Shown: piece by piece, positions 1 to 16,809 of the stretch
Layout: each line of letters begins with the position of its first letter
Numbering within the stretch: the stretch's first letter is position 1
DNA from: an uncultured virus (IMG/VR IMGVR_UViG_3300046003_003079)
Lineage: Duplodnaviria > Heunggongvirae > Uroviricota > Caudoviricetes > Crassvirales
Length of the DNA stretch: 64,000 nt
Reading direction: 5' to 3' (one strand)
IMG/VR virus record: IMGVR_UViG_3300046003_003079
Translations under genes and position numbers: made by a program
The notes under the pieces: model-generated
The model's database searches: none
Told to the model about the DNA's origin: nothing
The model's input: the letters and a program-made list of their open reading frames with translations, nothing else

Positions 1-248
1 ATTTTGTAAGTGCAGGAGCCGTGAATGTAGCGCCCTGACGAACATAAACGGAACCCGATACTTCGGTAAGTGCAGGAGCCGTGAATGTAGCGCCCTGACG
101 AACATAAACGGAACCCGATACTTCGGTAAGTGCAGGAGCCGTGAATGTAGCGCCCTCTTGAACATAAACGGAACCCGATTTTGTAAGTGCAGGAGCCGTG
201 AATGTAGCGCCCTCTTGAACATAAACGGAACCCGATACTTCGGTAAGT
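1..248. repeat. Coding tandem repeat, 57/60-bp units
   Basis: Four near-identical copies of gtaagtgcaggagccgtgaatgtagcgccct(gac g/ctt g)aacataaacggaacccgat; unit lengths are multiples of 3. Confidence 0.95.
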
Positions 249-304
249 TTCTTGAAGGTTTTACAGTTTTCCTTTGTGATGATTAAATCTCCTAAGTGTT
301 TCAT
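1..304 (-). CDS. Tandem-repeat (beta-solenoid/LRR-like) protein, N-terminal part; runs off the window edge
   Basis: Not in the ORF track. ATG at 304-302 overlaps the TGA of the upstream gene (ATGA). Translation: MKHLGDLIITKENCKTFKKLTEVSGSVYVQEGATFTAPALTKSGSVYVQEGATFTAPALTEVSGSVYVRQGATFTAPAL..., open to position 1. Confidence 0.85.
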   Translation of the reverse strand, partial: MKHLGDLIITKENCKTFKKLTEVSGSVYVQEGATFTAPALTKSGSVYVQEGATFTAPALTEVSGSVYVRQGATFTAPALTEVSGSVYVRQGATFTAPALTK

Positions 305-834
305 TCTATTATAGATTTTAATTTGGTTACATAATTAGGGTCTTCAGCGTAGTTTTGCGCCAAGTAATTCAAATACTGCTCACGAGTCTTTAAATCACGC
401 AGGAATGCAGCTTGAAACAGCGCGTAGTCCATGACTGATTGTTTCCAGTCTGAATACATGGCATGACCTCTGTGCGTACTAGTGCATGTAGTGGGGCGCT
501 GCATAGCTTTCTTCATGCCAAACAGATTGTTTGACTCAATGAATATGCGCGACTTAAAATTGTTTGACTCAAGTACTGCCTGAGCGTATACAATATCAGC
601 GTGTCGTATGTTTAACGAACGGATGTACTGCTTTAATTCGTGACTAGAGAAATGACTGCCTTCCTTTATGATTACAGGATGTGCCTCAGTCTCAATATAC
701 TTTATTTCTTTCTTCTCACTTACTGACAGACCAATCATTATGGCGAGTGACGTGATGAGAATTAGGATTACTGCCAGCCCATACCTGACGGGCTGATAGT
801 TTAATGTCTTGCTGTTGAATTTGTATAACTTCAT
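301..834 (-). CDS. Membrane-anchored glucosaminidase (GH73-like) peptidoglycan hydrolase
   Basis: N-terminal TM segment; motifs AQAVLES, NNLFGMK and YAEDPNY typical of the FlgJ/GH73 domain. Confidence 0.8.
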   Translation of the reverse strand: MKLYKFNSKTLNYQPVRYGLAVILILITSLAIMIGLSVSEKKEIKYIETEAHPVIIKEGSHFSSHELKQYIRSLNIRHADIVYAQAVLESNNFKSRIFIESNNLFGMKKAMQRPTTCTSTHRGHAMYSDWKQSVMDYALFQAAFLRDLKTREQYLNYLAQNYAEDPNYVTKLKSIIE

Positions 835-844
835 GATTGCTCGA

Positions 845-1321
845 TTAATTTAACTTTTCAACTTGCCCTTTGTAGTTTTTTCTTTGTTCCTTCAAATATA
901 TTTGTAAAACTCTGATTGTTTTTTCTATATCTGATATGAATTCACCCTTTTTTCTGCACCTAACAGTTCTTTTTATGACTTCAAATTCATACGAATTCAA
1001 TTTGTGTTTTTCAGCGAATTTATATAAGCTACCTCCAGTATTATCGTAGTGACTATCTATCTTAGGTCCCTGTTCACAATCACGCTTGTATACAAATCGC
1101 TCCTTTCCTTTGTCATCCAATACCAGATGCGCCTCATGCTCTGGATCATCACCCACAACTTCGAACTTCTGTCCTACTTTCTTTTCATACCAGTGCATTA
1201 CTGGCCCATTCATAATTGTTATTTCCATATATTCTTGAATTAATGCTGTTATTTTTGTGCCCATTGATTTAGGCAAATCTGATCCTAATTTCTGTTCTAG
1301 GAATTCACGTGGGGTCACCAT
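845..1321 (-). CDS. Hypothetical protein with DUF3310-like C-terminal domain
   Basis: C-terminal SHYD...IKRTVRCRKKG...DIEK pattern resembles phage DUF3310 proteins. Confidence 0.5.
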   Translation of the reverse strand: MVTPREFLEQKLGSDLPKSMGTKITALIQEYMEITIMNGPVMHWYEKKVGQKFEVVGDDPEHEAHLVLDDKGKERFVYKRDCEQGPKIDSHYDNTGGSLYKFAEKHKLNSYEFEVIKRTVRCRKKGEFISDIEKTIRVLQIYLKEQRKNYKGQVEKLN

Positions 1322-1505
1322 TTGTTATGTTTTTAAGTAGGTTAAATACTTGTTGTGAATTATCTCCCCAATACATATCGCAATTTGAATCTTTGTATGG
1401 AGGTTCTAAAAAGTATGACTGCATCATCGAACTGTCTACTTTATATCGGTAACAACTTTCTTTGAGTGGGCATCCTTCGCCTGTGCATTTAGTTATGTCG
1501 CTCAT
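1305..1505 (-). CDS. Small Cys-rich phage protein
   Basis: DITKC.GEGCPLKESCYRY motif; in operon with neighbours. Confidence 0.6.
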   Translation of the reverse strand: MSDITKCTGEGCPLKESCYRYKVDSSMMQSYFLEPPYKDSNCDMYWGDNSQQVFNLLKNITNGDPT

Positions 1506-1599
1506 TTTATTTTGATTTAAAGGTTAATAATCATCCCAATAATATACTATAAGAGTTATAATTGTTAAGATACTAATCCATCCTAATATTTCTTTCATC

Positions 1600-1848
1600 T
1601 TATTCTGATTTAAAGGTTTGTTTTAAACTTTCAAGTCTTAAAAACACTCTCATTACACTTGAATCATTACCATGTAGTCTAAGCATTTCTAATACTGATT
1701 CATTCTCCTCTATCTGTACTTTTAATTTTTCTTGCTTCTCCATTTCTTTGGCTAATATAATTTCATTCTCAAATTCTGCAATATTATTAGTTGAGAAACC
1801 AATTGCTTCTAACTGCTCTACAAAATACTCTACTGCTGTTTGTTTCAT
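1600..1848 (-). CDS. Hypothetical protein, 'TAVE..AKEMEKQ..KSE' paralogue family
   Basis: Likely start MKQTAVEY just after the stop of 1850-2071; shares motifs with 1850-2071 and 61620-61826. Confidence 0.65.
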   Translation of the reverse strand: MKQTAVEYFVEQLEAIGFSTNNIAEFENEIILAKEMEKQEKLKVQIEENESVLEMLRLHGNDSSVMRVFLRLESLKQTFKSE

Positions 1849-1849
1849 A

Positions 1850-2071
1850 TTATTCTGATTTAAAAGTTCTATTATAATAATCCTCAAAACATTCTCCATG
1901 CCCATTTTCTATAACAGCCCACTGACCATGGTTATAAAACTGCTCAAGTTCCTGCTTTTCCATTTCTTTGGCTTGTTGGATTTTATTTTTAAACTTTAAT
2001 TGACTACCAATATCATTTGGTATTAAATCTTTAATGCTTTCTTCAAGCCATTCTACTGCTGTTTTCATCAT
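1850..2071 (-). CDS. Hypothetical protein, 'TAVE..AKEMEKQ..KSE' paralogue family
   Basis: MKTAVEWLEE...QAKEMEKQ...TFKSE. Confidence 0.7.
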   Translation of the reverse strand: MMKTAVEWLEESIKDLIPNDIGSQLKFKNKIQQAKEMEKQELEQFYNHGQWAVIENGHGECFEDYYNRTFKSE

Positions 2072-3053
2072 TTCTCGGTTTTAAGGGTTGGTTTAAATAG
2101 GGTAACGCCCCAATCATCTTCTTCTTTTTCTCCATTATATTCAGCAGCTGAATAACTCACGTTCATTTGTAAGATATATCCAGCATTACAACAACTTGAA
2201 GCAACTAAAACAGAACCGCCTACTTTATAACTTTCTAAGTTTCTATAAGCGTTTGAAGGTATTACTAATTCTTTTTTGCATTTTTTACATTCCATCTCTA
2301 CTGATTTTTAAGTATTTCTTCTAGTTGGGGGAGGGTTAATATAACTTCATCTACAAAAAAGCTAATAAACCACACCTCTTCAGGGTCTGAATATAATAAG
2401 TAGTTTTCCAAAGGACTAAAGTTTAACTCAAACATATCCTTATCAATGTGCTGACAATTCTTTATTAGTACATTCTCAACTTCCTTTAGCATTTCTTCAT
2501 TCTCAATGAATACTGCTATCTCGTGTTTTTTGTGGGTCATGTTATAAATCTTTAAGAACCTTGTCAGCTACACCGTCAGCGTAATCTTTTATCTTATCCT
2601 CTAGTCTCTCGGTGATAGCTTTTTGAATCTTCTGTCTAAACTCCCAACTATCCGTTGCTGAATGTATAGCATCTTTAATAGCTTTTTTAGCCCCTTCTTT
2701 TACATAGCCAATAAACCCATCTTCGTCTGATATTTCATCAATAGCTTTTTGTATTCCAATTACTATCTGTTCTTCAATAAGCAAGTTATTAACCATAACC
2801 TGTGATGCTATTTGTTGTGCATTTATTCCTAAATCCACTCTTAATGTTGTCATGTTTTCCATTTCTCTATTTTTAATTCTCCATCATTTCATCCTCTCAA
2901 TCCAGCCAGTACGACATGAATATATATTTGAACCATTAAATACGCCATCCCAAGAAATAATGGTATAGACAATATTCTGATCAATGCGTATTTCGATAAG
3001 CTCACAAGGCACATAAGCGCGAATGAAGCTATAAGTAGCAAGAAGTAAATCAT
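2068..3053 (-). CDS. Four small hypothetical early genes (2068-2295, 2298-2540, 2542-2862, 2889-3053 membrane protein)
   Basis: Tightly packed co-oriented ORFs; the last is hydrophobic and likely starts at the ATG at 3053. Confidence 0.65.
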
Positions 3054-3065
3054 GACTGTGAATTT

Positions 3066-3095
3066 AAATAAAGGCGGGAACACTCCTCTCCCGCC
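3066..3095 (-). terminator. Intrinsic terminator-like hairpin
   Basis: GGCGGGA-N9-TCCCGCC followed by TTTATTT on the minus strand. Confidence 0.6.
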
Positions 3096-3108
3096 ATTCG
3101 AGCTTACC

Positions 3109-3350
3109 TAAAAATTAAGAGTTTGTCCAGCACCCCTCATATCATTTATACGTTTAGTCGCGCTATAGATAAGAGTAGGGTCCGCGTAGTTAGTTACCTC
3201 CTTTCGATGTGTAAGTGGGAGGATTACTGAATTCACACCTGACTAACCACTTGCTGAGAATCATTCCGTAGCACCAATCTGTTATCGCTAACATGCATGC
3301 TTCCTCAAGGCATACTACAGTCCAACATTACTGCTGATATCCAATTTTTA
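3109..3350 (-). ncRNA. Candidate ~240-nt structured ncRNA of unknown family
   Basis: ORF-free gap. Ends pair (TAAAAATT/AATTTTTA); internal helices GTGGTTAGT/ACTAACTAC and CCTCC/GGAGG; possible pseudoknot GTGTGA/TTACAC; terminator follows. Confidence 0.5.
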
Positions 3351-3382
3351 AAGAGCCTTTCAATGTTTAGTGCTCTGCTGAC

Positions 3383-3712
3383 TTAACGACATTCGGTCAG
3401 CAACGAGATCTTCTCGCCTATCTCATTGTACGTGGAGTTAGGACTGAATCCAGAATCAGCTAACGTCTTACGAATCCATTTGGTAGTTGACTTCAATGTG
3501 TTGCCACCTACATAAAATCCTTGGGCGGTAAAACTTTGCTTGTACTGTGATTCATTATTTTTTAATGCTGTTAATAACTCACTTAATTTCTGACCATCAG
3601 TTCGGTCATCTCGCTTGTATTCTACGAATCTGGTTCTATTTCTTCGTGGAGTAAAGTCATACTGTTGACCCATCATGCTTAACGCCATTAATGAGTAAAG
3701 ATTTGCTTTCAT
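3383..3712 (-). CDS. Hypothetical protein
   Basis: ORF track; ATGA overlap with the upstream gene. Confidence 0.6.
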   Translation of the reverse strand: MKANLYSLMALSMMGQQYDFTPRRNRTRFVEYKRDDRTDGQKLSELLTALKNNESQYKQSFTAQGFYVGGNTLKSTTKWIRKTLADSGFSPNSTYNEIGEKISLLTECR

Positions 3713-4131
3713 GCTAATGGTTTCAAGTATTTATATGCTTTCTGATACTTTTTTAACAGGCTGCTATTAAACCCATCCATCCTAGAAATATCCATGTTGT
3801 GCTCCAAGTCTGCAATCTTTACTGCACGAGCAATTGGATTGGTAGCTAATAGCATGATGTAATCCATGTATGGAAGTCCTTCGTCATGCTGTAAAACTGC
3901 AACTGCATACACGACTTTAACGTTAAATCCATGTTTAGCTAAATCATGTATGGTAACATCGCTATCCTCCAGTACATCATGCATGACCGCTGCCATCATG
4001 TAATCATCGCCTAAATGACTGACTTTATTCATCACATGAAGCGGATGAAGGATGTATGGTCTGCCACCCTTGTCTAATTGATTTAGGTGGGCATTCGATG
4101 CTATAAATATTGCTGTTGCTAAGTTGCTCAT
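3709..4131 (-). CDS. HD-domain (p)ppGpp hydrolase-like protein (Mesh1/SpoT-HD-like)
   Basis: Motifs H..Q.DKGGRPYILHP, HDVLED and VKIADLEHN. Confidence 0.8.
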   Translation of the reverse strand: MSNLATAIFIASNAHLNQLDKGGRPYILHPLHVMNKVSHLGDDYMMAAVMHDVLEDSDVTIHDLAKHGFNVKVVYAVAVLQHDEGLPYMDYIMLLATNPIARAVKIADLEHNMDISRMDGFNSSLLKKYQKAYKYLKPLA

Positions 4132-4373
4132 TTTTTCTCCTTTACATGGTAGGTAACTCCTATCTTTTTGCCATTCTTGACTTTATAGATAGTTTCAATC
4201 TCGTAGCCCTTGTGGTTTGATTTGCGGACTGATTCTTGGTCGACAAGAATGGCGCCTAATAACATTGATACCAGTGTCACTGAAAACATAAATGGAAGTA
4301 CCTCTGTCCCTATTACTTTTGCATCAACCACAATAAGAACAATTATTATTAATACTAATAAAAAAATCAACAT
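4128..4373 (-). CDS. Small membrane protein
   Basis: Two hydrophobic segments. Confidence 0.6.
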   Translation of the reverse strand: MLIFLLVLIIIVLIVVDAKVIGTEVLPFMFSVTLVSMLLGAILVDQESVRKSNHKGYEIETIYKVKNGKKIGVTYHVKEKK

Positions 4374-4385
4374 AATTTAAAATTT

Positions 4386-4424
4386 AAAAATAAAATCAGG
4401 CAGTACTACACTTCCTGCCTGATT
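4386..4424 (-). terminator. Intrinsic terminator after the tmRNA coding piece
   Basis: Perfect 10-bp stem AATCAGGCAG/CTGCCTGATT followed by TTATTTTT on the minus strand. Confidence 0.8.
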
Positions 4425-4429
4425 AAACA

Positions 4430-4722
4430 CCCTACTTTACGCTACTGCGCGAAGTTGTGGATTCATTTGGATAACATTTGCGGTTATCTTTAAAGTAGTC
4501 TTAATCCTTTTACCTCTTTCTTGCTGTCAAGCCTAGAAACGCCCCCCATATGTTAGATTTTATTCTGCTCTAACTACAGCATTTAATAGTTCACAGGATT
4601 ACTGTTATCCTCAAGGGCAGTTTTCTGTGTTGACAACTACTGGTGGAGGCGGAGGGTTCTGCCCCCTCGTCCAAACAAGCGACTAATAATCAGACGGCAT
4701 GCAAGATGCCTAGACTAATTTG
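4430..4722 (-). ncRNA. ssrA: Circularly permuted (two-piece) tmRNA gene
   Basis: Minus strand, in order: acceptor piece ...TGGAC GAGGG GGCAGAA CCCTC CGCCTCC A CCA (ends 4641); 94-nt intervening segment; coding piece starting GGGGGCG TTTCTAGGCTTGAC (4546). Acceptor stem has G3-U70 and discriminator A. ATAACC precedes resume codon GCA (4481); tag ANVIQMNPQLRAVA* ends 4437. Confidence 0.9.
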
Positions 4723-4760
4723 TGACTGTGAACCAAACCAATAGTCCACAGCCAATTAAT

Positions 4761-5093
4761 TTAATCTAACAACGCTTCATTCTCTTTCAAGAATGCAATA
4801 AGCAAAGTATTCTCTTCCAATGCTTCCTCGGCCTCGGTAACTCGATTCTTTGCTGCAATCAAAGTAGCAACGTAATCGTCACCATCCGTAACTGGCTGAC
4901 CGAAATTCAGTCTTGCTTTCATTAAGTTTTCCTTTGCTAACTCAACTTCTTCTTCCAGCTTTACAGCATTGCCTTCCTTGATGCAGATATGCGTTTTTAA
5001 TGCTGCTTTAGATGTTCGTTGAGCACGGATTGCTTGAACTTCTGTTGTCTCACCTGCTGCCATAGCGATGAATTCTTTGATGTAACTTTTCAT
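4761..5093 (-). CDS. Hypothetical coiled-coil protein
   Basis: ORF track; helical, Ala/Glu-rich. Confidence 0.65.
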   Translation of the reverse strand: MKSYIKEFIAMAAGETTEVQAIRAQRTSKAALKTHICIKEGNAVKLEEEVELAKENLMKARLNFGQPVTDGDDYVATLIAAKNRVTEAEEALEENTLLIAFLKENEALLD

Positions 5094-5094
5094 T

Positions 5095-5847
5095 TTACTT
5101 TAATTTATGGTTTATATTCTTCGTATTCGGGACAAATGTACTGAATGTTTTCTTTTTTCGCAAATTTAATTTTGGTTGTTCTGGATTCCATGTTATAACA
5201 TGGCCTGTTTGCTGGAGCGCTTCGTTTTCGGTGACTGGGTAGTCTCGAGTTTTAATATCAATAAATGGAGAAGATGTTGCTATTTTAATGATTTCATCCC
5301 ATTTAAAATCTGGAGTATTTGTGTGATAATGTCCAGCTCTTATGTCGTGATTGAAGCGCACTGGATTATACCCAATAATCTCACATGCTTCTTTGAAGTT
5401 GATAAATCTATCCATTCTTTCATGGCTATGATTATCTATCCCATATATAACATTTGATTGAACTTTACAATCCCATCCATTATTTAATATGTAATACTTT
5501 TTGGACTTGAAATTCTCAAATGTGTCGGGTATATAATTTCGATGAACATGAAATGGAGTGATGTTTTTCTTAACAAACTCCATCCATGCATCAAAAAATT
5601 CTGGAGTCATTTCATCCGAGTATTTTAGACAGACTCTATCCGTGAAGTACCCATGCTCTTTTAGAAAGTCTATTGGGTGGACTTCTGTAGTACCAGTATG
5701 CATACTGATGTAATCCCATAATTTATCGTCTATATATATGATAGAGTCAGTTAAATCTCTAACTCCAAGCCTAACTTTATCAGACACGAAGTTAAACTGC
5801 GCTTTAGTGTTGCAAATGACGTATCTCATGTCGTAAAAATGTTGCAT
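5095..5847 (-). CDS. Hypothetical protein (start may be the ATG at 5829)
   Basis: 250-aa ORF co-oriented with neighbours. Confidence 0.65.
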   Translation of the reverse strand: MQHFYDMRYVICNTKAQFNFVSDKVRLGVRDLTDSIIYIDDKLWDYISMHTGTTEVHPIDFLKEHGYFTDRVCLKYSDEMTPEFFDAWMEFVKKNITPFHVHRNYIPDTFENFKSKKYYILNNGWDCKVQSNVIYGIDNHSHERMDRFINFKEACEIIGYNPVRFNHDIRAGHYHTNTPDFKWDEIIKIATSSPFIDIKTRDYPVTENEALQQTGHVITWNPEQPKLNLRKKKTFSTFVPNTKNINHKLK

Positions 5848-5870
5848 AAACCCAAGTAAACACTGAGAAA

Positions 5871-5997
5871 ATTGCAGAGTGTCGAAGAGGGCTTATTTAT
5901 TAGTAATAATTTATTTTACACTTCCTTTTTTATTTTTTCGCCAAATAAATAGAGGTGATGCTACATACTGCAATAGTGACTGTGAATCAGGCAGTTA
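5871..5997. repeat. Origin-like element, copy 1 (IR-flanked AT-rich core plus IHF-like box)
   Basis: ATTGCAGAGTGT (5871-5882)...ACATACTGCAAT (5963-5974); core homologous to the reverse complement of 12926-13036; AATCAGGCAGTTA at 5985-5997. Confidence 0.6.
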
Positions 5998-6726
5998 TGC
6001 AACACGAATCTGCAATACTATCGTCATCTCCGTCACTCTTCCGTACATGAAGTTTGGATGTTCGGATAATTTTTCGGCATGGTCGCGTACAAAAATTGAT
6101 ACCAGACTTGATAAAAACTTTTCTGATGGATTGGATACATGCGTTACTTCTTGCACGATTACATTGTGCTCTGTCGCTACTATATCAGCGTTTAAACTAT
6201 GTGCTGCCTCGCCATCTTTCAATAGCTTCTGCACAAACTGTCTTAAATTTTTCATTTCATAAGTGCATCAATCGCCTTCTGGATGTCGACGAATAGTAAA
6301 TAATTGTCTAATCGTAGGTCAACCTTGCTGCCTACTGCACGGAATACCACCTCCAGCTTGTTGTCTATCTTTTGGTATTCTATTATTCGCACTTGGAAGA
6401 TCTTACCTCCTGTTGGCTTGCCTATGAAACCTCTGTTTATGGCGAATGCCTTACTGCCTATTGTGAGTGGTTTATACATGACTGAATGTATTTTTTGCTC
6501 GGCCTTTGAATTGGCGGAATGTTAGTTCCTGTTTGCATGCTGATTTCTTAGAATGAAGTAGATTAGAATCTGAGTATACAAATCCATTTTTGAAATAATT
6601 TTTCGTGTCTATATCATTATGGTCGTATATGTGGGTATATCTACGGCTATTATTCTCAATATCCAGCAACTCATTCCATTGCTTCTCTGTTAAATTCTTA
6701 ACATAATCTCCTTCTTGTAGTTTCAT
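5995..6726 (-). CDS. Three small hypothetical early genes (5995-6255, 6252-6479, 6472-6726)
   Basis: Overlapping start/stop arrangement on the minus strand. Confidence 0.65.
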
Positions 6727-6748
6727 GATATTTGATTTAATTTGTTAG

Positions 6749-6875
6749 TGGTCGCAAAAGGATTCGAACCTGTATCTATCATTGGGTTTCCCCTAAGTAT
6801 GAGGTGTGCTTACGATTATACTTCCAAATCTTTATCACTCCATCCTATAACGTCTACCAATTCCGCCATGCGACC
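6749..6875 (-). tRNA. tRNA-like RNA (127 nt) with abnormal extended anticodon arm; no assignable anticodon
   Basis: Acceptor stem GGTCGCA/TGCGACC+A; D-arm TGGCGGAATTGGTAGACG (Leu/Ser-type); T-arm AGG-TTCGAAT-CCT; ~75 nt between the D and T arms. Confidence 0.7.
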
Positions 6876-6957
6876 TGTTTGGAAAGGCTGTACCACTACA
6901 GCACAGCCTTTTATTTGTTCGATATCTTTCTATATTATAAATTAAATTTTAGGGTAA

Positions 6958-9900
6958 CTACAACCCATCATAGTACAAGACCCATTGGAAGATTATCGCC
7001 CTTCGGTCCGTCAGACGATATCTTTTGCATAATGTGGTCGGTCCAAATATATGGACCAAAATATCTAGCGCATCTTCAGTGAAGAATACAGTAGTGAATA
7101 TTATCCTGTAATACAGTGGGAAGATAGAACCTAAATTACCAACGTCTAAGCTGGCAATAAGATATGGCTTGTATATCTTCATGACTGTGAATTTAGTTAA
7201 AGTTAGCCGCCCGATACGGGAGTACAGGCGGCATAGAGGCATTACTGATTTTTTACTGGCTGTCCACTAAACATGCCGACGTACTGTTATGTTGCCTCAA
7301 TTAGTTTATACTTGTCTGTATGGTATGTTATACCCATCAAAAGAACTTCTGCTTCTGTTTTTGAATAGGCATCTATACTTATTACAATACGTGAATTCTC
7401 AACGTGTTGAAATTTGAATGTTTTTAATGGTGGCATGATTGTGATATTAAAGGTTAATATTTTGTTTAATATGAGTAGATACTGTACGTCCTGTTTGAAT
7501 AATAACATCAAACTCATCTTTCAATTCATCAATTAAGTCTTTGTAAGACTTTAAATATTTACCACCAAGGCATCCGTCCCATACATTTATTCCACCTTCA
7601 TCCTCAATGATTGAGATATGCCTACATCTTCGATAGGTGGTTTTATTATCAATACATGTAAGTGATGTGGTAATTTTTGTAGATAGCAACTTTTCTTCAT
7701 TACTCATTACTAATATCTATTAAGTTGAACACCCAATTCCTCGCACTTAACACGTGCTGTATCAATGATTTTTTGATTCAATTCCATTGAGCCTGTATGC
7801 TTGTAATCGAATTCATCAAGCGGAATAATAAAACCTTTATCATCTAGCTTTAATATTGTTAATACTCCTTCTTCTTTATATCCAGCGTGTGGATATTCTA
7901 ATACAGTCAAGATTCCAAATCTGAATGATGTACTGTCTACTTCGATTAAATGTGTCATGGGTTCCTGTTTTTAGTTAATTCTTGTTACTGTCATGAATGA
8001 ATGCTCATCATCACGATTTGATCGGAGGGAGTACATCTCGCCTACGTTTAAGTCGAGTAGTTTGTCGAACTCATCACATATAGCGTATGCCCATTCAAAG
8101 TCTAATCGAATTAAATGATTAATGCCGAAAGGCTCAACATTGAATGCTTCTCCTTGCTCTATTCCGATTACTTTGAATCGTCTATTGGATAGTATGTCGT
8201 TTATGTGGCTCATGATAATAATTGTTTAGCTTCGTTTGTTGGTAGTCCGTTTAATCCCAATACACCTGTTACTATTTGGCGCAAGTCATGGACTGTTAAA
8301 TGCGTTTGGCATGTGCCGTGAAGATTGTTCTTAATGACTGCTTTCATGCTTTCAATAATTCTTTCAATCTGTTCTTTAGTCCATAAGTCTGGATTGAATG
8401 TAATCTTAAGGCAATTCTTTACTCCATCGCCTTCTCTCAACACTCTAATCTTTGCTTTTCTATAGTCTCCACTATACACGCGTGGAATGTAAACTGCATA
8501 CTGGCTGTATTGATTGCCGTAATGCGTTTCTACCTTTAGCCCTTTCTGAATTGCTAAATGCTTTGCTAATTCGCTGTATGTTTTCATGACTGTGAATTTA
8601 AATGTGACTAATACGGCAGTATTTCATGCCGTTTCGGATAATTAATCCTCGTCAGTTAGTCTTGTTAGCACCCAACGGCATGAATAATAATTTCTTTAAT
8701 CTAATCAGACTTGAATCGTCGTACAAGTCCATTAATTCCTGCGCTCTTGATGGCTGGATTGTTAGCTGTCCTAACATCGGGTGATTAATTTCGCCAGCCT
8801 GTCTGCTCATTGCTATTTGCTGTAATCTCTCACGGATTGATAGCTGTCTGATTGTGCCGCTTGTCGCTTGAAAGCCTACACTATTTGGGATTTGTCCGTT
8901 CATTATAAATGGGTTTTAGAAGTTTAAATCTTTCAATTGCTCCTGTGCAATTTTTTCTGAGGAATGCAAGTCACCTTTAAATAATTCAACATGCATAAGT
9001 CCGTCCGTTATTGAATCGGGTGAAAGTATCTCAGATACCAATACTGGGTCATCTGATTTATCGTCGTAATCAATTACCACAATATCGGCATCAACATTCG
9101 TACAGATACTTTGAACGATGCCACCTTCAACGGTGATTAATATTTTTAGCTTTCCCATGGTCTTTATTTGATGTTAAAATTCAATTGTTTCCTCCTCATT
9201 ACCCACTAATTCAATGATGAATGTGGGAAAGTTTTCCTTCAGTCTATCAACTAATTCTTCATTGTCGTATAAAAAATCTCCGTCATTTTCTTCTGCCCAT
9301 TCTCTGTCCTCCTCAATTAATGGCTTCAAAAATAGCTTAACTTGAGTTACTGGCAAATTAGTTACAATTGTAAAATCGTCTTCACTTGCACTTGTTGGTT
9401 TAATGATTATAGTTTTCATGACTTGCTGTATTTAATGATTTCATCTAATGTGGATTGACTGACTGTTGGGTATTTTTCATCATAACAAGAGTTACAGTAG
9501 TCTGTAAATTCGTTAGAATTATTTGGACATCCTTTACACTTACATAGTCTTTGCCCTTTGTAATTTACATCTGTAGATTTTACTCTATCTAAATAATCCT
9601 CATGACCACTCATATCTACATAGTCAGTCTTGTCTGTATTCCATCTTCTACTAGGCCAAATTTCGTCCTGTATCGGATATTCTTTGATTATTTGTTCGTT
9701 AGTCATGACTTTATAATTTACTGTAAACACTTGTGCCATCTGAAAATCCACCTACACGGTTTAAAACGTCAGCGTATTTATTCAATTCCTTTTGTAGTTT
9801 GTCCCAAATTTTATTGATAAATGACTCAGCTAATCCATGTTTGCCGTATTCGTCTGCATGCTGATTAGGACGCGCTGAAATACTAACTAATCCACAATAT

Positions 9901-10636
9901 TCAGATATGCCGATTTCAACAATACGGTTTTCAAGAATGATTCTTGTTTCTCTACCGTCGTATCTACCGTCTACATCTTTAAATGAAGGATATAATTCTT
10001 TGATGACTGATATTATATTATCATGCAAATCATCAAATGCGAATTCATCATCAACCATTTCACCATCTTCATTTTCGTACTCAGTCTCATATTTTATATA
10101 TAAAACCTTAGTTGCATTGCTTAAATAATCTACAGAACGTCCCATGACTTTAGTTTTAAATGATTAATTATAAATACTTGCATCTGTTCAATGCATCTAA
10201 ATACTCTTCATTTGTTCCAATGAAATAGCATTTGTTTAGTCTACTCAACATTTTATTATTACCCGAAGCAATTCCGAAGATGGGGAGTAAATAATTATAT
10301 TGTTTTTGAGTTAATGGAAATGAATAGTCTCTCATAGCGCATGTTTTAAATGATTAATTAATTCCCATGCTGAAATTCGCCATCAATAAATACTGGCTCA
10401 TATTCCCCATGGTCTGCTGTCATATCGTCCAATTCAAAGAAGTCTGTAGTCGACGCTAATTTTAACTCATGACATACTGCGATTACAGGATATTCGTCAC
10501 CTTTTGTTGGATGCTCAACAAATACTATTTCTTGTCCTAAACTGTTAGTCATTCTACCGTACTCAGTAGGATTTAGACTGATTAATTTCTCGTAGTTTAA
10601 CATGATGTATGATTTTAAGGTTTTGCCCATCTGCAT
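6958..10636 (-). CDS. Cluster of ~13 small hypothetical early genes (6958-7182, 7287-~7437, 7447-7707, 7710-7958, 7971-8213, 8210-8587, 8652-8903, 8916-9158, 9174-9419, 9416-~9706, 9711-10145, 10168-10335, 10358-~10603)
   Basis: Contiguous co-oriented short ORFs, several acidic. 10168-10335 (MRDYSFPL...) is below the track cutoff. No recognisable domains. Confidence 0.6.
8606..8661 (-). ncRNA. Type I hammerhead ribozyme
   Basis: Minus strand: GACTAA CTGACGA GGAT-TAATT-ATCC GAAA C-GGCA-TGAAATAC-TGCC-G TA TTAGTC. Complete core (CUGANGA, GAAA, GUA triplet) and stems I-III. Confidence 0.9.
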
Positions 10637-10684
10637 TGACTTAATTTATAGAATCGTCTATCATTTTACTAACTGTTACATATA

Positions 10685-10786
10685 CCTAGAAATGTAATTT
10701 CGAAACGCAAATTGAGATTAACACAATTCGTTTAGTAATTTAAATAGCATTCACGTATAGCCTAGGAACGTGCTTTCGAAACGCAA
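10685..10786. repeat. Pair of 26-bp direct repeats containing palindrome TTTCGAAA
   Basis: CCTAGAAATGTAATTTCGAAACGCAA (10685-10710) vs CCTAGGAACGTGCTTTCGAAACGCAA (10761-10786), 22/26 identical. Confidence 0.75.
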
Positions 10787-10829
10787 TCCTATAAATTAAG
10801 TCCTACACCTTTGGAATGTAGAATGATGC

Positions 10830-11405
10830 ATTAACAAACGAGTTGGCTTAGACTTTTCAGCCCCGCTCGTTTAAATCGGATGTCTTAAATGCTTTCTTGT
10901 TTCAATGGTATATTGTCGAAAGTATAGAGAAACAATAAGGTCTATACTACCAAGGTCTTCCACCTCTAATCAAACCACATAGGGAACTATTTTACTGACT
11001 ATCTTTTGGTTGCTATCTTTTGCACTAGCTGTTATGTCAATGAACTAAGTATTAGACTGAACTACTGGCTACTTACTTAAAACTGTTTCAAACCGAAGTA
11101 AGGCATGCTCTAAACTTTCACTCTTCATTCACCTTACTAGCATACTGATTCATCATCGTAACATCTTAAAGGCTGTCATGTTGTATTGCTTATTTGACTG
11201 ATACGCTAGACAATTTCAATCTATTTAGTCTGCGCATCGCTTTTGTAATCGTTCTAAGTAGGCTACTATTCCTTTGAAACAGAGACCGAAGCCTCAAACC
11301 TTTACTTTCACCTAGTCTCTGTCGTAATGACTGCTAGGACAGGTTCATTGTTGTTCACCCCTACATGTGTCACTTGTCAAATAAAAGTCAGCTCGTTTGC
11401 TTGAC
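10830..11405 (-). ncRNA. Long structured non-coding leader/ncRNA upstream of the early operon
   Basis: No ORF of 60 aa or more; at least five 7-9-bp perfect helices (see findings); starts just downstream of a TAnnTTTG box. Confidence 0.45.
11033..11046 (-). promoter_or_regulatory. boxA-like antitermination element
   Basis: AGTTCATTGACATA on the minus strand resembles the rrn boxA form of Bacteroidota. Confidence 0.5.
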
Positions 11406-11410
11406 TGAAA

Positions 11411-11418
11411 CAAACATA
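11411..11418 (-). promoter_or_regulatory. Bacteroidota-type -7 promoter box for leftward early transcription
   Basis: TATGTTTG (TAnnTTTG) on the minus strand at the head of the leftward arm. Confidence 0.6.
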
Positions 11419-11765
11419 CGGCGTTTGATTGGATTGACAATGCTTGCACTATCATTATTTTTGATAAATTAGACGAACGTCTTAATTCCTTCGACGAATG
11501 ATGTCATTTCTTCGATCAACTTCAAATTCTTAATTGCGTGACTTTTTGATTGCATGCTAAATGGCTGAAATACAGGCAGTTATGACTCTATACGCGCGTG
11601 CAGGATTCTATATGGGGAAGGGAGGTTTTCTGAAATGGGGGGAGAATGGTGGTCTAACACAATAAGTTAGACTAACCTAACTCTATCAATTAGATGAGCC
11701 GAATTCACGACAAACGGCAGGAATGACTGACTGACTGACGGCTTGGATCCCTTGGTATCATTGAG

Positions 11766-11793
11766 TTGTCTTATAATTAACATTATGTTAAAT
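11766..11793 (+). other. dif-like XerC/XerD recombination site
   Basis: TTGTCTTATAA-TTAACA-TTATGTTAAAT: 11-6-11 geometry; right arm identical to the canonical XerD arm; left arm ends in ATAA like XerC arms. Confidence 0.75.
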
Positions 11794-12034
11794 AGATAGC
11801 TAAACAATTGACAATCAGCACGTTATATCGTTAAACAGGCAAGCATGAATGCATGCATGACGAACGAATACAGCCCAATGATAGCAGGCCATCAGACAAA
11901 AAGCTAAAAAGTTTGAACGGAATTTCTGAAATCAGCACCCCCCATCGACTTTTTCGAACGTTTTCCTTTTAGGTTGGTTCGCGTCAGATAGCTATGTTAT
12001 CCAAACTCTCTGCACATACAACAATATTTTTTTA

Positions 12035-12042
12035 TATCTTTG
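12035..12042 (+). promoter_or_regulatory. Bacteroidota-type -7 promoter box (representative of many)
   Basis: TATCTTTG upstream of 12071. Same TAnnTTTG box at 12433, 14286, 16424, 16781, ~21840, ~24647, ~30597, ~33949, ~34567, ~43910, ~44666 (+) and 57528-57535 (-), almost all just upstream of gene starts. Confidence 0.75.
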
Positions 12043-12070
12043 CATCGTATATACATAAAAACAAATAGCT

Positions 12071-12316
12071 ATGAAAACAAAAATGACAGTAAAAAAGACT
12101 GACACTGGTAAGGGTAAAAAGACAACTCTTAAGATGAGTGACAGTGCAGCATCTAAGTCTGCAGCTAAGTACAAGCCTACAGCATCTACAAGTGCTAAAG
12201 CAGCTAAATCTGTAAAGAATGACATTGGGCGTATCAATCCTGTAACTGGAAAGGTAATGACCAAAGCTGATGCAGATGCTAAAGCTCGTCAATTAGAGAA
12301 AAAGAAGAGATCTTAA
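12071..12316 (+). CDS. Small Lys/Ala-rich basic protein (possible nucleic-acid-binding, H1-like)
   Basis: Strongly basic, low-complexity KA-rich sequence; own promoter and terminator. Confidence 0.7.
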   Translation: MKTKMTVKKTDTGKGKKTTLKMSDSAASKSAAKYKPTASTSAKAAKSVKNDIGRINPVTGKVMTKADADAKARQLEKKKRS

Positions 12317-12339
12317 TTCATTAAGACGTACCTTTTCAG

Positions 12340-12369
12340 ACCTCACTATTTACTTAGTGGGGTTTTTTT
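12340..12369 (+). terminator. Intrinsic terminator
   Basis: cctcacta-tttact-tagtgggg followed by T7. Confidence 0.7.
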
Positions 12370-12465
12370 ATGCATTAGTCGAAGCATTTCTGTTATTCGT
12401 CGAAAAGATTTGCAGGAATGAAAAAGAATATATATGTTTGATCCATAACTTTAAAACTAGAAAAA

Positions 12466-12837
12466 ATGAAAACAACAATCTTTACAGCAGCAATGATCAT
12501 GGTATCATTATTCTCTTCAGCACAAACTTTAGAGAATCCATTAAGCTGGGATGAATTAATGGAAGACGTAAATGCATTACCAATTCATTACGCATGGTAT
12601 GAAGACCAGAATGATGGAAGTTTGACAATGAGTATTCCAGACACAAAAGAAGGAAGAAAATTCTTATCTGATTTGATCGATAGTTTTGGAGGAGATATTA
12701 AGTCACCCACGTCAAAAAGACCAATGGGTAAATCGACATACTTTTATCACAATACGACATTGGTAGAATATTTTTTCTACTACAATTTCCAAGTGTTGGA
12801 TTTTGAACCAGAGCTTGTAATTGTACTAAAACAGTGA
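12466..12837 (+). CDS. Secreted/periplasmic hypothetical protein
   Basis: Signal peptide MKTTIFTAAMIMVSLFSSA-Q, typical Bacteroidota SPI cleavage before Gln. Confidence 0.7.
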   Translation: MKTTIFTAAMIMVSLFSSAQTLENPLSWDELMEDVNALPIHYAWYEDQNDGSLTMSIPDTKEGRKFLSDLIDSFGGDIKSPTSKRPMGKSTYFYHNTTLVEYFFYYNFQVLDFEPELVIVLKQ

Positions 12838-12925
12838 TTTTTCGCAAAATTCAACATTTTTAGTGTCGAAGATGTTGCAAGAATGACGCAAAAATGACGC
12901 AAAGAACCGCAGAAACACTGGAATA

Positions 12926-13122
12926 ATTGCAGTATGTAGTATGTACCCTCTTTATTTAGCGAAAAAAAATTATTAATAAGAGAAAGGAGAAAAACTTTTT
13001 TTATAAATAAATGACCTCTCTTCGACATACTGCAATACTCGCTGATTATCAGACAGTTAGCCTACACAGAAGCGACATTTTACTGACACTCTTTGCAATA
13101 CTGCCTGATAATCAAGCAGTTG
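12926..13122. repeat. Origin-like element, copy 2 (perfect 12-bp IR around AT-rich core, plus two IHF-like boxes)
   Basis: ATTGCAGTATGT (12926-12937)/ACATACTGCAAT (13025-13036); CTGATTATCAGACAGTTA (13042-13059) and CTGATAATCAAGCAGTTG (13105-13122), each preceded by TGCAATACT. Confidence 0.6.
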
Positions 13123-13164
13123 GACGACACTCAACTAAATAATTAATTAAATAAACAAATAAAA

Positions 13165-14120
13165 ATGAAAAGAACAAAAATCGATTTCAGTAGACATGAA
13201 CTTGAAATCACAACACTTGAAATCACTCCAAACAAAAAGGTAAGAATACATACATTTAAAAGGCCCGATACTACTAATTGCATGTTGGTATTTATAAACG
13301 CTTGTGGCGTTATGACGGTAACTGGAGATTTTGGTAATTGGGTATTTTGTAGAGAATTTCATCCATCAGCAAATGGAGACGGAGTAAGCGGAGGATACTG
13401 GGATGAGAAGTTGGAGATAGCATCTGTACAAAAATCAGATCAGTACGACTCGGAAAAGACAATGGAAGCTATAAATGACTTTAAAAATGACTTCGAAGAT
13501 AATTATGGAAGACCAATGAGTGAAGAGGAGATGGATTGGGTAGAAAGATTGGAAGGAAGTATAGATGATGAGCATGAGTACGTTTATATAGCCTACAGAG
13601 AAAACCCAAGTAGCATAGATTACGAATCAGTGCCATTTGGCAAAAAACGTCATGTATGGCTTGATGCGGTTTATGATGGATTTAATGAGATATGTGCTGT
13701 GATGAAAAGAGAAGGTTGGTCATGAAAAGCTTAACGAATAAACAACTAGAAGAAGCACCATTATTAATTCAACAGATCCACTTTACGTGGATGATTGGAC
13801 GACCAATTGGTAGCTCGACATATGAAAAAGCAATCGCTGATCATCCAGAATATTTTCCAGATGAGGTTGAAGCAAAAAGAAAATGGGATCTTGTTCCACA
13901 AGAAGTACATGATAAGTATTTGGAAGAATACTGGCAGGTTCATCGCGAAATATTCAAGGACGTGACAGATGGAGGTGGGTTTATGGATACGATAAATAAT
14001 TCATCAGCACATCAAGCATGGAGAAAAGCAAATGATGAGGCTTATGCTAAAATGAAGCCATTAGAAAAGAAGTTACACAACAAGTACTATTTGAAGTACG
14101 GAATTAAATATAATGGATAA
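13165..14120 (+). CDS. Two hypothetical proteins (13165-13725; ~13722-14120)
   Basis: ORF track; the second probably starts at MKSLTNK (ATGA overlap). Confidence 0.7.
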
Positions 14121-14297
14121 TGAAAAACAAACTTCGCATCAAGAAAATGGACCAAGCTCGCGAACGGGAGAAAGGTCGCCAACCTGTCGGTTGGGCACGG
14201 AATGAGGACGGGTCATTTAGCTGGCTTTATAAAGGTTGGGTAAAAATAAATTCAGCCAGATCGTTAAACCCATAGGAATAAATTATATATTTGCGAC

Positions 14298-14651
14298 ATG
14301 AAAGTAATCATTGCAGGCAGCCGTTCATTTAGCGACTATGAATTTCTTTGCAGGATATGCGACCAGCTACTCGTCAATCAGTCAGACGTAGAGATAGTCA
14401 GCGGTGGATGCTATGGTCCAGATAGACTTGGAGAACGATACGCTATAGTGCGAAAACACAAGTTAAAACAAATGCCAGCAAACTGGAAGTCATTAGGTAA
14501 GAAAGCTGGTCCAATCAGGAATGAAGAGATGGCTAAATACGCTGACGCACTGATTGCTTTCTGGGATGGGAAAAGCAAGGGAACCATGCATATGATCAGC
14601 ATGGCAGATAAGTATAAATTAAAAACAAGAATAATTAATTATGGAATTTAA
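14298..14651 (+). CDS. SLOG-family / DUF2493 (YspA-like) nucleotide-binding protein
   Basis: Motifs VIIAGSR.F.DY, IVSGG..GPD, AGPIRNEEM and IAFWDGKSKGT. Confidence 0.8.
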   Translation: MKVIIAGSRSFSDYEFLCRICDQLLVNQSDVEIVSGGCYGPDRLGERYAIVRKHKLKQMPANWKSLGKKAGPIRNEEMAKYADALIAFWDGKSKGTMHMISMADKYKLKTRIINYGI

Positions 14652-16407
14652 AGGAACAAAAGGAGAGTGGAAGATTGGTAATTCAGAATTATCAGTAATT
14701 GAACCCAACAAAGGATTGATTATTGCTTATGTTGGTTCAAGAAATGAATTATCAATTGAAGAACAGAAATCTAACGCCAAAATAATCGCAGCAGCACCTG
14801 AGTTGTTGGAAGCGTTGCAGATATACCTAAACGCAGGATGTAAGAATCAAAGACGTGACGCATCTGTTATAGCTAAAAAAGCAATCAACAAAGCACTCCT
14901 ATGATCAACCAAATATTCAAAACTCACTTCGAGCGCACAATGATCAATAAAATCAATAAAAAATGACAGAAAAAGAAAATCAAATAGCAGAAGCTAAAAG
15001 ACTACTAGAAAAAATGCCATTAGACATGGCAATAACTGTATGTGAAGAGGTTGGAAGTAAGCTTCCAAACATAAATGAAACACCTCCAATACATAGAAAA
15101 TCAGAGAGGCATTATATGCAGTTCTGGCGTTATGGAGTAGTATCTGAGCTTAAGAAACTAGCCCATATAAAAAGCGATCTAGAATCACTAAAAGACAAGG
15201 TGTTAAAGGAATATGAAAACGGAAATGTAGTCGTATATGGACCGTTAGGATTCACTATATTGGATATTGACAGTCTTATAAACCAACCGATTGATGGATT
15301 GCTTTACGATCTAAATAGAAACGAGTCAACAATACTTTTGTTCATAGAGGATTTTAAATGGATAAACGACTTTGCTATGATGAAGGTATTGCAAAAAATC
15401 AAGAAAGACTCCTACACCATCGACGACATTGAACGCGCAGTAAACCACTGGTCCATGACGACAGTAGAAAAGGAAAACATAATTAAATTTTTAGAGAAAT
15501 GAGTAAAAACGCCAACAAACCAGCCTTCGCAGCAGCCGCTGTGGACGGACAGAATAACTACTTGAGTGTTGGACTAACCAAGCGCGAGTATATTGCGACA
15601 GCAATAACCAAGGAGTTGTCACATGACTTCGAAAACATAGACGCTATGATTGACACAGCTATTGAAATAACTGACAAACTATTAGAAAAACTAGAGGTAT
15701 GAAAATCACCCCACAAGAACAAGTATCAAGACTGGAATATATCTGCGGAAACACTCAGGAAGCAATTAATTTCGTTGAAAAAGACTTACAAGAAGAGATG
15801 ACAGAAAGTCAGAGAGAATACATGAATGAAGTACTAACAGAATTAAAAAGAAGATTATGAAATACTTTTGGCATTTTATACACATTTTGCAAATACTATT
15901 TAGCATTACAATGTGTGTGCTGTTTCCATATTGGATCAGCGAAGGATATTTAAGCGATCCATATCCAATTATTGGAGCATTCATCGGATCATATGGTGGA
16001 TTTATCGGAGGAGTGATTTGGTATTACAGAAACTTTAAACACATCCAATGATTATAGCAGCAGCCATACTCATACTAGTCTCTGCTGTATTCGAAGCAGT
16101 GATGGACTTCCTTCAGTTTAAATACACTGGTAGAAGTCAGTTCTGGAATCCAGAATTAAGCTGGATGAATAAATGGGACTACTCAACAATACCACGAAAA
16201 GAACGATTCCCACTATCATCCACAGTACTTGTATTTCTGACTGACGGCTGGCATCTAATGAAGTGGTGCAGAAATAGATGCTTGGATGTAGCCATGTTTT
16301 TAGTCGCGATTGGACTGACTGATTTCTGGATGGCATTCTGGATTACAATTACCATCAGATCGGCTTATGGAATTATTTTTGAATTTGTTTTTCGAAAACT
16401 CAAATAG
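14641..16407 (+). CDS. Five small hypothetical genes (14641-14904, 14963-15502, 15499-15702, 15857-16051 TM, 16048-16407 TM)
   Basis: Common phage motifs NAKIIAAAPELLEAL and GLTKREYIA; last two hydrophobic. Confidence 0.65.
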
Positions 16408-16606: not shown

Positions 16607-16809
16607 ATGCTAAATACTTTTTACAAAACATGCATAAATTGTAAATAATATTTGTACATGAAAACTGAAACATGTATAAAAAGCAAATTATTTTATACTT
16701 TTCTGCGAGATTATCGCAAAATCTCGAAGCATTTATACAAATTATTTTATGTATATAAGTCGCAAGTATCAAAAAATAACTATATTTGCCAAAACTAAAT
16801 TTAATTAAA

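Follow-up and report, generated by a model that had tools for sequence, protein, structure and literature searches.

A canonical, covarying type I hammerhead ribozyme at the junction of two small genes in an uncultured phage

What occupies the longest gap in a closely packed run of small phage genes? The stretch analysed here as a whole, 64,000 nt of uncultured virus DNA (IMG/VR record IMGVR_UViG_3300046003_003079, hereafter the window), carries a run of small genes on its minus strand from 10636 down to 7287. Neighbours in this run lie -4 to 22 nt apart, with the exception of one gap of 64 nt, which separates an upstream open reading frame (ORF) of 83 amino acids (ORF83, 8652..8903) from a downstream ORF of 125 amino acids (ORF125, 8210..8587). 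A reading made from the letters alone, hereafter the original prediction, had placed a hammerhead ribozyme in this gap, with the stop codon of ORF83 as part of its catalytic core, and had proposed that it processes a polycistronic early mRNA and that this may be coupled to translation. I found that positions 8661-8606 of the minus strand hold a canonical, covarying and selectively maintained hammerhead between two genes, on the sense strand of these co-directional phage genes. It is likely, and held here with good confidence, that this is a genuine type I hammerhead that cuts a multi-gene transcript after A8612, probably uncoupling the cistrons of ORF83 and ORF125.

On the minus strand, the 56 nt of the element (8606..8661) could be assigned to hammerhead parts from the sequence, the predicted fold, a descriptor, an alignment to Rfam and a covariation model, and the conserved nucleotides and three stems that the original prediction had described turned out to be correct in every detail. 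Stem I has 6 bp (8661-8656 with 8611-8606) and is followed by the core C3-A9, CUGACGA, at 8655-8649; stem II has 4 bp (8648-8645 with 8639-8636) and is closed by a 5-nt loop (8644-8640); G12, A13 and A14 lie at 8635-8633, and stem III has 6 bp (8632-8627 with 8618-8613) around an 8-nt loop (8626-8619). H17 is A8612, and the predicted cut falls between 8612 and 8611. Everything that the core of a hammerhead requires is in place (C3-A9, G12-A14, the pair A15.1-U16.1, and an H17 that is not G), and the pairs next to the core are all standard, namely U8611-A8656 (1.1-2.1), G8648-C8636 (10.1-11.1) and A8632-U8613 (15.1-16.1). The topology is that of type I: loops close stems II and III while stem I is open, and the parts follow in the order core, stem II, GAAA, stem III, UH. 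A single unpaired A stands directly 5' of stem I (8662) and another directly 3' of it (8605). The minimum free energy fold of the 71 nt at 8670-8600 was exactly the hammerhead three-way junction; its energy of -16.0 kcal/mol (z -3.67) was equalled by 1 of 200 shuffles.

The overlap with ORF83 was likewise as described: the gene ends on the UGA at 8654-8652, which is U4-A6 of CUGACGA, and its last three sense codons with the stop (8661-8652) supply the 5' strand of stem I together with the first nucleotides of the core. The predicted cut lies 24 nt before the ATG of ORF125 at 8587, which would leave the 3' product with a leader (8588..8611) made of the 6-nt 3' strand of stem I and 18 nt free of any Shine-Dalgarno-like purine run.

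The descriptor, which asked for the core and stems of at least 4/3/4, matched a single site on both strands of the 64 kb. Among 1500 dinucleotide-preserving shuffles of the window, a match with stems of at least 5/4/5 arose in 2 and a loose 3/3/3 match in 127, which is rare per window and not rare across a scan of many windows. Rfam at gathering thresholds called no ribozyme of any family in the 64-kb window, and an E-value search of 261 nt returned no hammerhead model up to E 10. Matches below threshold appeared in a 72-nt search only: Hammerhead_1 (RF00163) aligned over its whole length (1-45 of 45) with every core position matched and scored 11.7 bits (gathering 34), while the best-scoring Rfam ribozyme model, RAGATH-1-hammerhead (RF03152), gave 16.0 bits (gathering 56.3). 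The 3' two-thirds of RAGATH-1 (model positions 26-77) align with the core and stems, whereas positions 1-25 have no counterpart, and the window element is not a member of that family. The Rfam hammerhead models, which had been suggested as a check, thus did not call the element, and they missed the whole class of its relatives too: at gathering there were 0 matches in 10 related loci in which a covariation model described below (R1) locates 19 copies, so the low score is a property of the library models and not of the element. Because the shuffle rate implies many false matches in a large scan and Rfam was of no help, the question was settled by comparison with relatives, and this comparative evidence is decisive.

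A search pattern was used in which only the core and, in stems II and III, the inner pairs were fixed, and stem I was left unconstrained. The pattern was derived from the window sequence, which by itself produces part of the likeness at its fixed positions; no such bias affects stem I, the loops, the flanks or the members that models found later. In viral contigs it retrieved 18 stretches, and all 18 form a stem I (6 bp in 16, 5 bp in one and 4 bp in one) with sequences that differ among them. After dropping 5 near-duplicates, the remaining 13 were aligned with the window (alignment A2): 98.6% of 220 cells pair, 9 of 16 pairs show compensatory changes, including 5 of the 6 in stem I, and none of 500 shuffles reached as high. 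Model R1 was built from this alignment. A second alignment of 27 members that excluded the window (A4, the basis of model R2) gave 99.1% pairing over 428 cells and compensatory changes in 13 of 16 pairs; again 0 of 500 shuffles scored as high, and controls in which the alignment was slid paired at 17-48%. The compensatory changes occur in all three helices, and the catalytic nucleotides are invariant. Model R2, which had not seen the window, scored its element at 66.5 bits (E 5.1e-17, filters off), and the next match in the 64 kb reached 12.4 bits. This second-best match, at 53292-53335 (+), is a core-like string inside an ORF of 2765 amino acids that lacks real stems II and III, and was rejected as chance.

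A scan with the commonest stem I (GGTTAA/TTAACC) brought the number of stretches in viral contigs to at least 130, and class statistics were taken from 87-88 distinct contexts in 80 loci among these listed stretches. By these matches the class is abundant in viral contigs; it lies below Rfam thresholds. Its signature combines a 6-bp stem I, mostly GGUUAA/UUAACC and bounded by invariant unpaired As, with a U-N-N-N-U loop on a stem II of 4 bp and a leader rich in A. The A on the 5' side of stem I, at a position left free in the search pattern, was found in 99% of 87 class members, and the A on the 3' side, at +7 after the cut, also in 99%; loop II had 5 nt in 66 of the 87, began with U in 76 and ended with U in 73. 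The window copy has both of these As (A8662 and A8605) and the U-N-N-N-U form of loop II. In natural hammerheads a contact between stem I and loop II confers speed at cellular Mg2+ (PMC3088659), and A8662, A8605 and loop II, which lie in the region of that contact, are candidate elements for it.

The junctions in which the class occurs have a recurrent layout. In 77 of 88 contexts there is an upstream frame, 40 codons or longer, whose end falls in the interval from -60 to +5 relative to C3; in 71 of these 77 it falls within 20 nt of C3. A downstream ORF starting with ATG lies within 200 nt in 70 of 88; its distance from the cut is 10-40 nt in 59 of the 70, with median and mode both 22, and 19-26 nt in 51. 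The leaders are A-rich and G-poor. With its stop at +1 and its ATG at 24, the window is typical of the class. In whole records, R1 located 8 copies on a single strand of G003, a contig of 79 kb, all of them within 5.4 kb, and 2 copies in another contig (G002), so that several ribozymes flank genes of one unit there; the window has no such cluster.

Two class members were located in cultured phages. Pelagibacter phage HTVC019P carries an unannotated copy at NC_020483.1 2947-3009 (+) (1501-1563 of locus L174), between gp09 and gp10, which R2 scored at 47.3 bits; its stem I is of another sequence, with unpaired As on both sides, and its loop II is UUAAU. Because HTVC019P carries a copy, the class is not confined to phages of Bacteroidota. 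The second, in Flavobacterium phage elemoA_7-9A, lies at NC_055852.1 17289-17348 (-) with 44.7 bits, and the ATG of gp69 follows 28 nt after the cut. In that record a 35-aa plus-strand ORF, gp68, is annotated at 17275-17382 (976-1083 of L173) over the hammerhead, between the minus-strand genes gp67 and gp69; this ORF call is probably spurious.

Natural variation at the locus was taken from four lake-water DNA runs, compared as contigs over 8200-9200. A contig of run X9, ~7% diverged, spans 8581-8903 with 19 substitutions (17 of them listed) and 6 gaps, and within the 56 nt a single change is listed: at 8612, the only core position free to vary, H17 is C instead of A (GUC for GUA). The 18 nt just upstream (8663-8680), which encode the C-terminal tail of ORF83, differ by 7 substitutions and have lost 3 bases. 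For ORF125, X9 has 22 listed substitutions over 8289-8525, and 17 of them fall at third codon positions, which argues that ORF125, first delimited by the ORF call, is a real protein-coding gene. The X9 and X4 contigs are unrelated to the window just below 8581 and beyond 8903, and ORF83, the ribozyme and the leader up to the next ATG thus move as a cassette between different neighbours.

Homologues of ORF83 (31-45% identity) are encoded in loci that had been retrieved solely for their hammerhead. With an alignment of five family members (A5), a protein search of viral contigs yielded 28 loci with 20 distinct proteins. At 25-45% identity to ORF83, homologues were followed directly at the junction by a hammerhead (R2) in 15 loci, which account for 9 distinct proteins; in the other 13 loci (11 distinct proteins) it was missing. 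In the ribozyme-bearing loci the next ORF begins 55-74 nt after the stop in 12 of 15, the three exceptions being ATGs inside or before the ribozyme; where the ribozyme is missing, the distance from the stop is between -4 and +28 nt in 10 of 13 loci, two of which (L177 and L179) have an ATGA overlap of stop and start, and it is 138 and 372 nt in two others. Since ribozyme-bearing and tightly packed ribozyme-free junctions alternate among ORF83 homologues, the ribozyme is a facultative, modular junction element that alternates with tight coupling, and not a fixed part of ORF83.

One of these loci is of note in its own right: in L204, at about 920-950, the ORF83-family gene is followed by a typical leader (TTAACC, an A-rich run, ATG) that lacks the ribozyme body, and it looks as if either the hammerhead had been lost precisely or the leader had been the site of recombination. 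The family itself (the window and L177-L204) comprises proteins of 63-83 aa, together with one extended form of 126 aa and one of 140 aa, and has as invariants T17, R19, E25, H41-P42 and G45, as well as an L-I-R-x-K motif near the C-terminus. Pfam and PHROG gave no family for the eight small proteins around the ribozyme, ORF83 and ORF125 included. ORF83 searched alone gave 30 pattern stretches in viral contigs and 537 in JGI metagenome contigs, none of which was confirmed; ORF125 found one weak locus in viral contigs (L001), where R2 has no match, and BLASTN of 8000-9500 against phage records returned no match.

The reading that a hammerhead cuts the transcript between ORF83 and ORF125 builds on its sequence and fold, on a large covarying family, on the recurring junction layout and on the sparing of the ribozyme in a diverged natural variant; that the junction is transcribed, that the RNA is cleaved in vivo, and what would follow from it, I infer. 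A multi-gene transcript would be made, in which the 56 nt would adopt the three-way junction and self-cleave after A8612. Of the two products, the upstream one would carry ORF83 with its stop codon, followed by almost all of the ribozyme with its two hairpins, and would end in a 2',3'-cyclic phosphate; the downstream one would begin with a 5'-OH and the 24-nt leader, devoid of a Shine-Dalgarno run, followed by ORF125. The likely effect would be that the two cistrons are physically uncoupled and become independent in decay and in translation initiation, as behind an insulator. RiboJ-type synthetic insulators exploit a self-cleaving hammerhead before the translation start, which gives a defined 5' end independent of the upstream context; RiboJ is an engineered part, and the analogy with the window element is functional only. 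With a real hammerhead in sense orientation at the junction of two co-directional ORFs, the best reading is that a multi-gene transcript cleaves itself, and the self-processing part of the original prediction stands as such, in line with what has been proposed for phage hammerheads elsewhere (PMC3088659).

Several points weigh against it. The element falls short of gathering for both Rfam hammerhead models, and the first search pattern built in some of the likeness among relatives. Only a single copy was found in the 64 kb (R1 and R2, filters off), and the nearest public relative, MW202828.1, had no hammerhead match. The 13 ribozyme-free loci among the 28 with ORF83 homologues mean that the ribozyme is dispensable for ORF83. 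Two of the 19 substitutions in X9 are unlisted, and not every position of the ribozyme can be vouched for in that contig. In run X4, a contig with a depth of 164.5 (out of 637.3) passes directly from 8634 to 8661 and so leaves out 26 nt, among them the core and the ORF83 stop; it also carries the A-to-C change at H17, and may represent a sub-population without an intact ribozyme, whether deleted or replaced. When at least 80 nt of upstream coding sequence were added, hammerhead folds made up 0.8-3% of the predicted ensemble. Among the sequencing runs listed as containing the ribozyme stretch there was no RNA run.

The alternative that fared best is a ribozyme gated by translation: the stop codon would sit in the core in order that ribosomes terminating on it time the folding, and cleavage would be coupled to the translation of ORF83. 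The overlap on which this draws is real, with the stop of ORF83 at U4-A6 and its last three sense codons in stem I, and a ribosome terminating there, which the original prediction had expected to cover stem I and the core, must indeed melt both; nothing shows that this is used for control. The stop positions of the class were examined in 71 contexts, with the coding frame chosen from the sequence upstream of -30 only. The upstream gene stops on the core UGA in 19, on a UAA in stem I in 21, in the ribozyme body in 5 and further upstream in 26, so that 45 of 71 stop inside the ribozyme; the 19 on the core UGA are nevertheless close to the one in three expected of a random frame under tight packing. 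The three frames are split 32/27/12 (chi-square p 0.01, with contexts that are not independent), in which the frame that reads into the body is mildly depleted, and this amounts to at most a mild avoidance of that frame. There is no fixed register either, as stops range from -28 to +29 with one read-through besides, and the annotated upstream gene in elemoA ends ~80 nt before the core. The stop-codon overlap is a by-product of tight packing and no special device, and the coupling to translation that the original prediction had proposed found no support.

A further case of overlap was seen at 738-968 (-) of L107 (equivalent to L184 683-913). The frame of this ORF83-family gene continues past stem I and the core, and its stop is a UAA located in loop II (+11 from C3), so that at least 17 nt double as coding sequence and ribozyme.

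Predicted folding in longer context also enters here. With 180 nt of upstream sequence the median hammerhead share in the family was 0.07 (below 3% in 21 of 72), compared with 0.30 when upstream sequence was left out, and the window value falls inside the range of the family; in these predictions upstream coding sequence competes with the fold, and ribosomes that clear it could favour folding. Cleavage is irreversible, however, and ribosomes could only delay the cut. The strand that would compete in the window, 8683-8674 pairing with the 5' strand of stem III, was considered as a switch and rejected, since X9 has 5 changes in it and yet retains the ribozyme, and since many family members have low shares as well. 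Opening the start region in the window was predicted to cost 2.94 kcal/mol before cleavage and 2.50 after it, and the family medians were 3.78 and 2.21, with the product easier to open in 61 of 68; start accessibility was not counted as evidence, because any truncation would do likewise. Neither the long-context folds nor the accessibility values, both of them model predictions, discriminate between the readings. A ribozyme gated by translation is unlikely.

It is less likely still that the element acts chiefly at the DNA level, as a portable boundary whose conserved 56 nt and leader help phages to exchange gene cassettes, with RNA cleavage in a secondary role. The common movement of ORF83, ribozyme and leader in X9 and X4 would fit this, as would the near-identical copies that flank single genes in arrays, the alternating presence and absence at homologous junctions, and the leader that L204 keeps without a body. 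A recombination signal has no need of an RNA structure, though, and here this structure is under selection, with compensatory changes in all three helices and invariant catalytic nucleotides; the window moreover holds a single copy. A chance look-alike or an inactive relic that does not cleave is the least credible of all: the 2 in 1500 shuffled windows are not negligible over a very large scan, the Rfam scores are far below gathering, X4 may contain a variant that lacks the core, and cleavage is a prediction here, but R2 recognised the element at E 5.1e-17 after the window had been left out, the class-specific unpaired As and loop II are present, the sole listed change in the population is the permitted one at H17, and the element has the core consensus and no mispair next to the core, the rules by which hammerheads were accepted in PMC3088659.

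The self-cleavage reading was also set in the context of the phage. The window encodes a large terminase (TerL), a portal, virion proteins and a GroEL-like chaperonin; TerL, the portal and GroEL mark it as belonging to a phage, here read as a tailed one of Flavobacteriia type that comes from lake water. TerL is nearest to an uncultured podovirus record (66%), followed by Flavobacterium elemo-phages (44.6%) and then by phages of Cellulophaga, Tenacibaculum and Maribacter, and the host is therefore probably a member of the Flavobacteriia. No Shine-Dalgarno runs precede the genes of the window, which fits such a host, given that ribosomes of the Flavobacteriia type are blind to this signal (PMC6847099, PMC7797042). 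The nearest record, G001, begins at about 14.6 kb of the window, with the ribozyme region outside it, and gave no R1 match. A sigma-70 scan of 1-15000 found 49 promoter-like sites (58.9 expected) and 9 terminator-like sites (7.3 expected) and was uninformative; a Bacteroidota-type promoter pattern had 7 matches (3.4 expected), none of them in 8587-8661 and the nearest on the minus strand at 9327-9357. The putative limits of the operon are therefore those given by gene packing.

A wider role for the class can tentatively be proposed, although I regard it as improbable in its full form: a portable uncoupling cassette that replaces translational coupling where phage genes meet, supplies a 5'-OH leader of ~22 nt which ribosomes of hosts blind to Shine-Dalgarno runs would need in order to initiate efficiently, and is cut at a time set by ribosomes on the overlapped stop. 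Its parts would be the 6-bp stem I between invariant As, the U-N-N-N-U loop II, and an A-rich leader free of Shine-Dalgarno runs that extends ~16 nt after stem I; the hosts concerned would be Flavobacteriia and perhaps SAR11. The sharp peak in ATG distance and the alternation with tightly packed ribozyme-free junctions fit such a cassette without proving it.

Some further features of the window were recorded. A permuted, two-piece transfer-messenger RNA (tmRNA) lies at 4346-4733 (-), on the same strand as the small-gene block (ARAGORN tmRNA*, tag peptide ANVIQMNPQLRAVA*), and the Rfam tmRNA_permuted model matches 4437-4693 with 51 bits (gathering 47). An Rfam tRNA match at 6749-6875 (-) scored 31.8 bits (gathering 29) over 127 nt, far beyond the length of a tRNA, and ARAGORN found none in the window; the match may be false, or the tRNA may be interrupted. 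Between the small-gene block and divergent plus-strand genes, ~1.3 kb at 10640-11990 is nearly devoid of ORFs of at least 45 aa on either strand (11667-11807 is the only one) and may be a regulatory or origin region. The GroEL-like chaperonin at 16786-18405 (+) matches PHROG 5725 (E 5.7e-124) and is shared with MW202828.1, and a GroES-type co-chaperonin is annotated in MW202828.1 and in the elemo-phages.

How does the element compare with systems already known? With the type I hammerheads of bacteria and phages (PMC3088659; RF00163) it shares the core, the three helices, the open stem I with closed stems II and III, the intergenic position in phages, and a stem III longer than in the type I forms of retroelements; the window element and its class differ from them in the sub-gathering score and in a signature of their own. 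That signature was not seen described in the text of PMC3088659, whose alignment supplement, Dataset S1, may contain members. A parallel in arrangement is with clustered hammerheads that flank single genes in polycistronic prophage RNAs, native fragments of which cleave in vitro (PMC3088659). Like the window element they lie between co-directional small genes, and the role proposed for them is the cutting of long transcripts into gene-length mRNAs; relatives of the window element have the same array arrangement (8 copies in 5.4 kb of G003), whereas the window has a single copy, and the examples tested in that source came from prophages of Clostridium, Azorhizobium and Agrobacterium, in contrast to the lytic-type Flavobacteriia phage here.

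A placement shortly before a start codon within a polycistronic unit is also known from HHphage of haloviruses HF1 and HF2, which lies 13 nt upstream of the start codon, as against 24 nt in the window, and for which a 5' end was mapped within three nucleotides of the cleavage site (PMC3088659); HHphage has an atypical insertion in its core and needs high salt, while the core in the window is fully canonical. Type I hammerheads of chrysovirids and fusarivirids lie in untranslated regions before ORFs (7 nt in one case), and a role in downstream translation has been proposed for them (PMC13725137). They have in common with the window element the type I topology, a longer helix III and the placement just upstream of ORFs, and differ in that they belong to RNA viruses of fungi and plants, depend on eukaryotic translation and reportedly have no loop-loop contacts, whereas the window belongs to a DNA phage.

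The element is thus real but ordinary: phage hammerheads that divide long messages are common and have been described since 2011 (Perreault 2011), and as type I hammerheads in phages, their clustering, in vitro cleavage and a mapped 5' end are already found in that work, the window element adds one example. The analysis adds the class signature missed at Rfam thresholds, the unannotated copies in HTVC019P and elemoA, and the pattern of presence and absence at homologous junctions. A literature search of limited coverage returned nothing on hammerheads in phages of Flavobacteriia or Pelagibacter, nor on a stop-codon overlap in phage hammerheads, and the words 'stop codon' occur 0 times in the main text of PMC3088659.

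For this phage the finding means that a 64-nt gap between two orphan genes holds a predicted catalytic RNA, and not an unannotated peptide or a terminator. For the class it means that an abundant group of canonical type I hammerheads escapes both Rfam thresholds and the reference annotation of cultured phages. The uncoupling of cistrons has been proposed as the purpose of phage hammerheads, a purpose that has been called still undefined (PMC3088659, PMC6765202), and the two cultured phage-host pairs, of HTVC019P and elemoA, would open this long-standing question to bench work.

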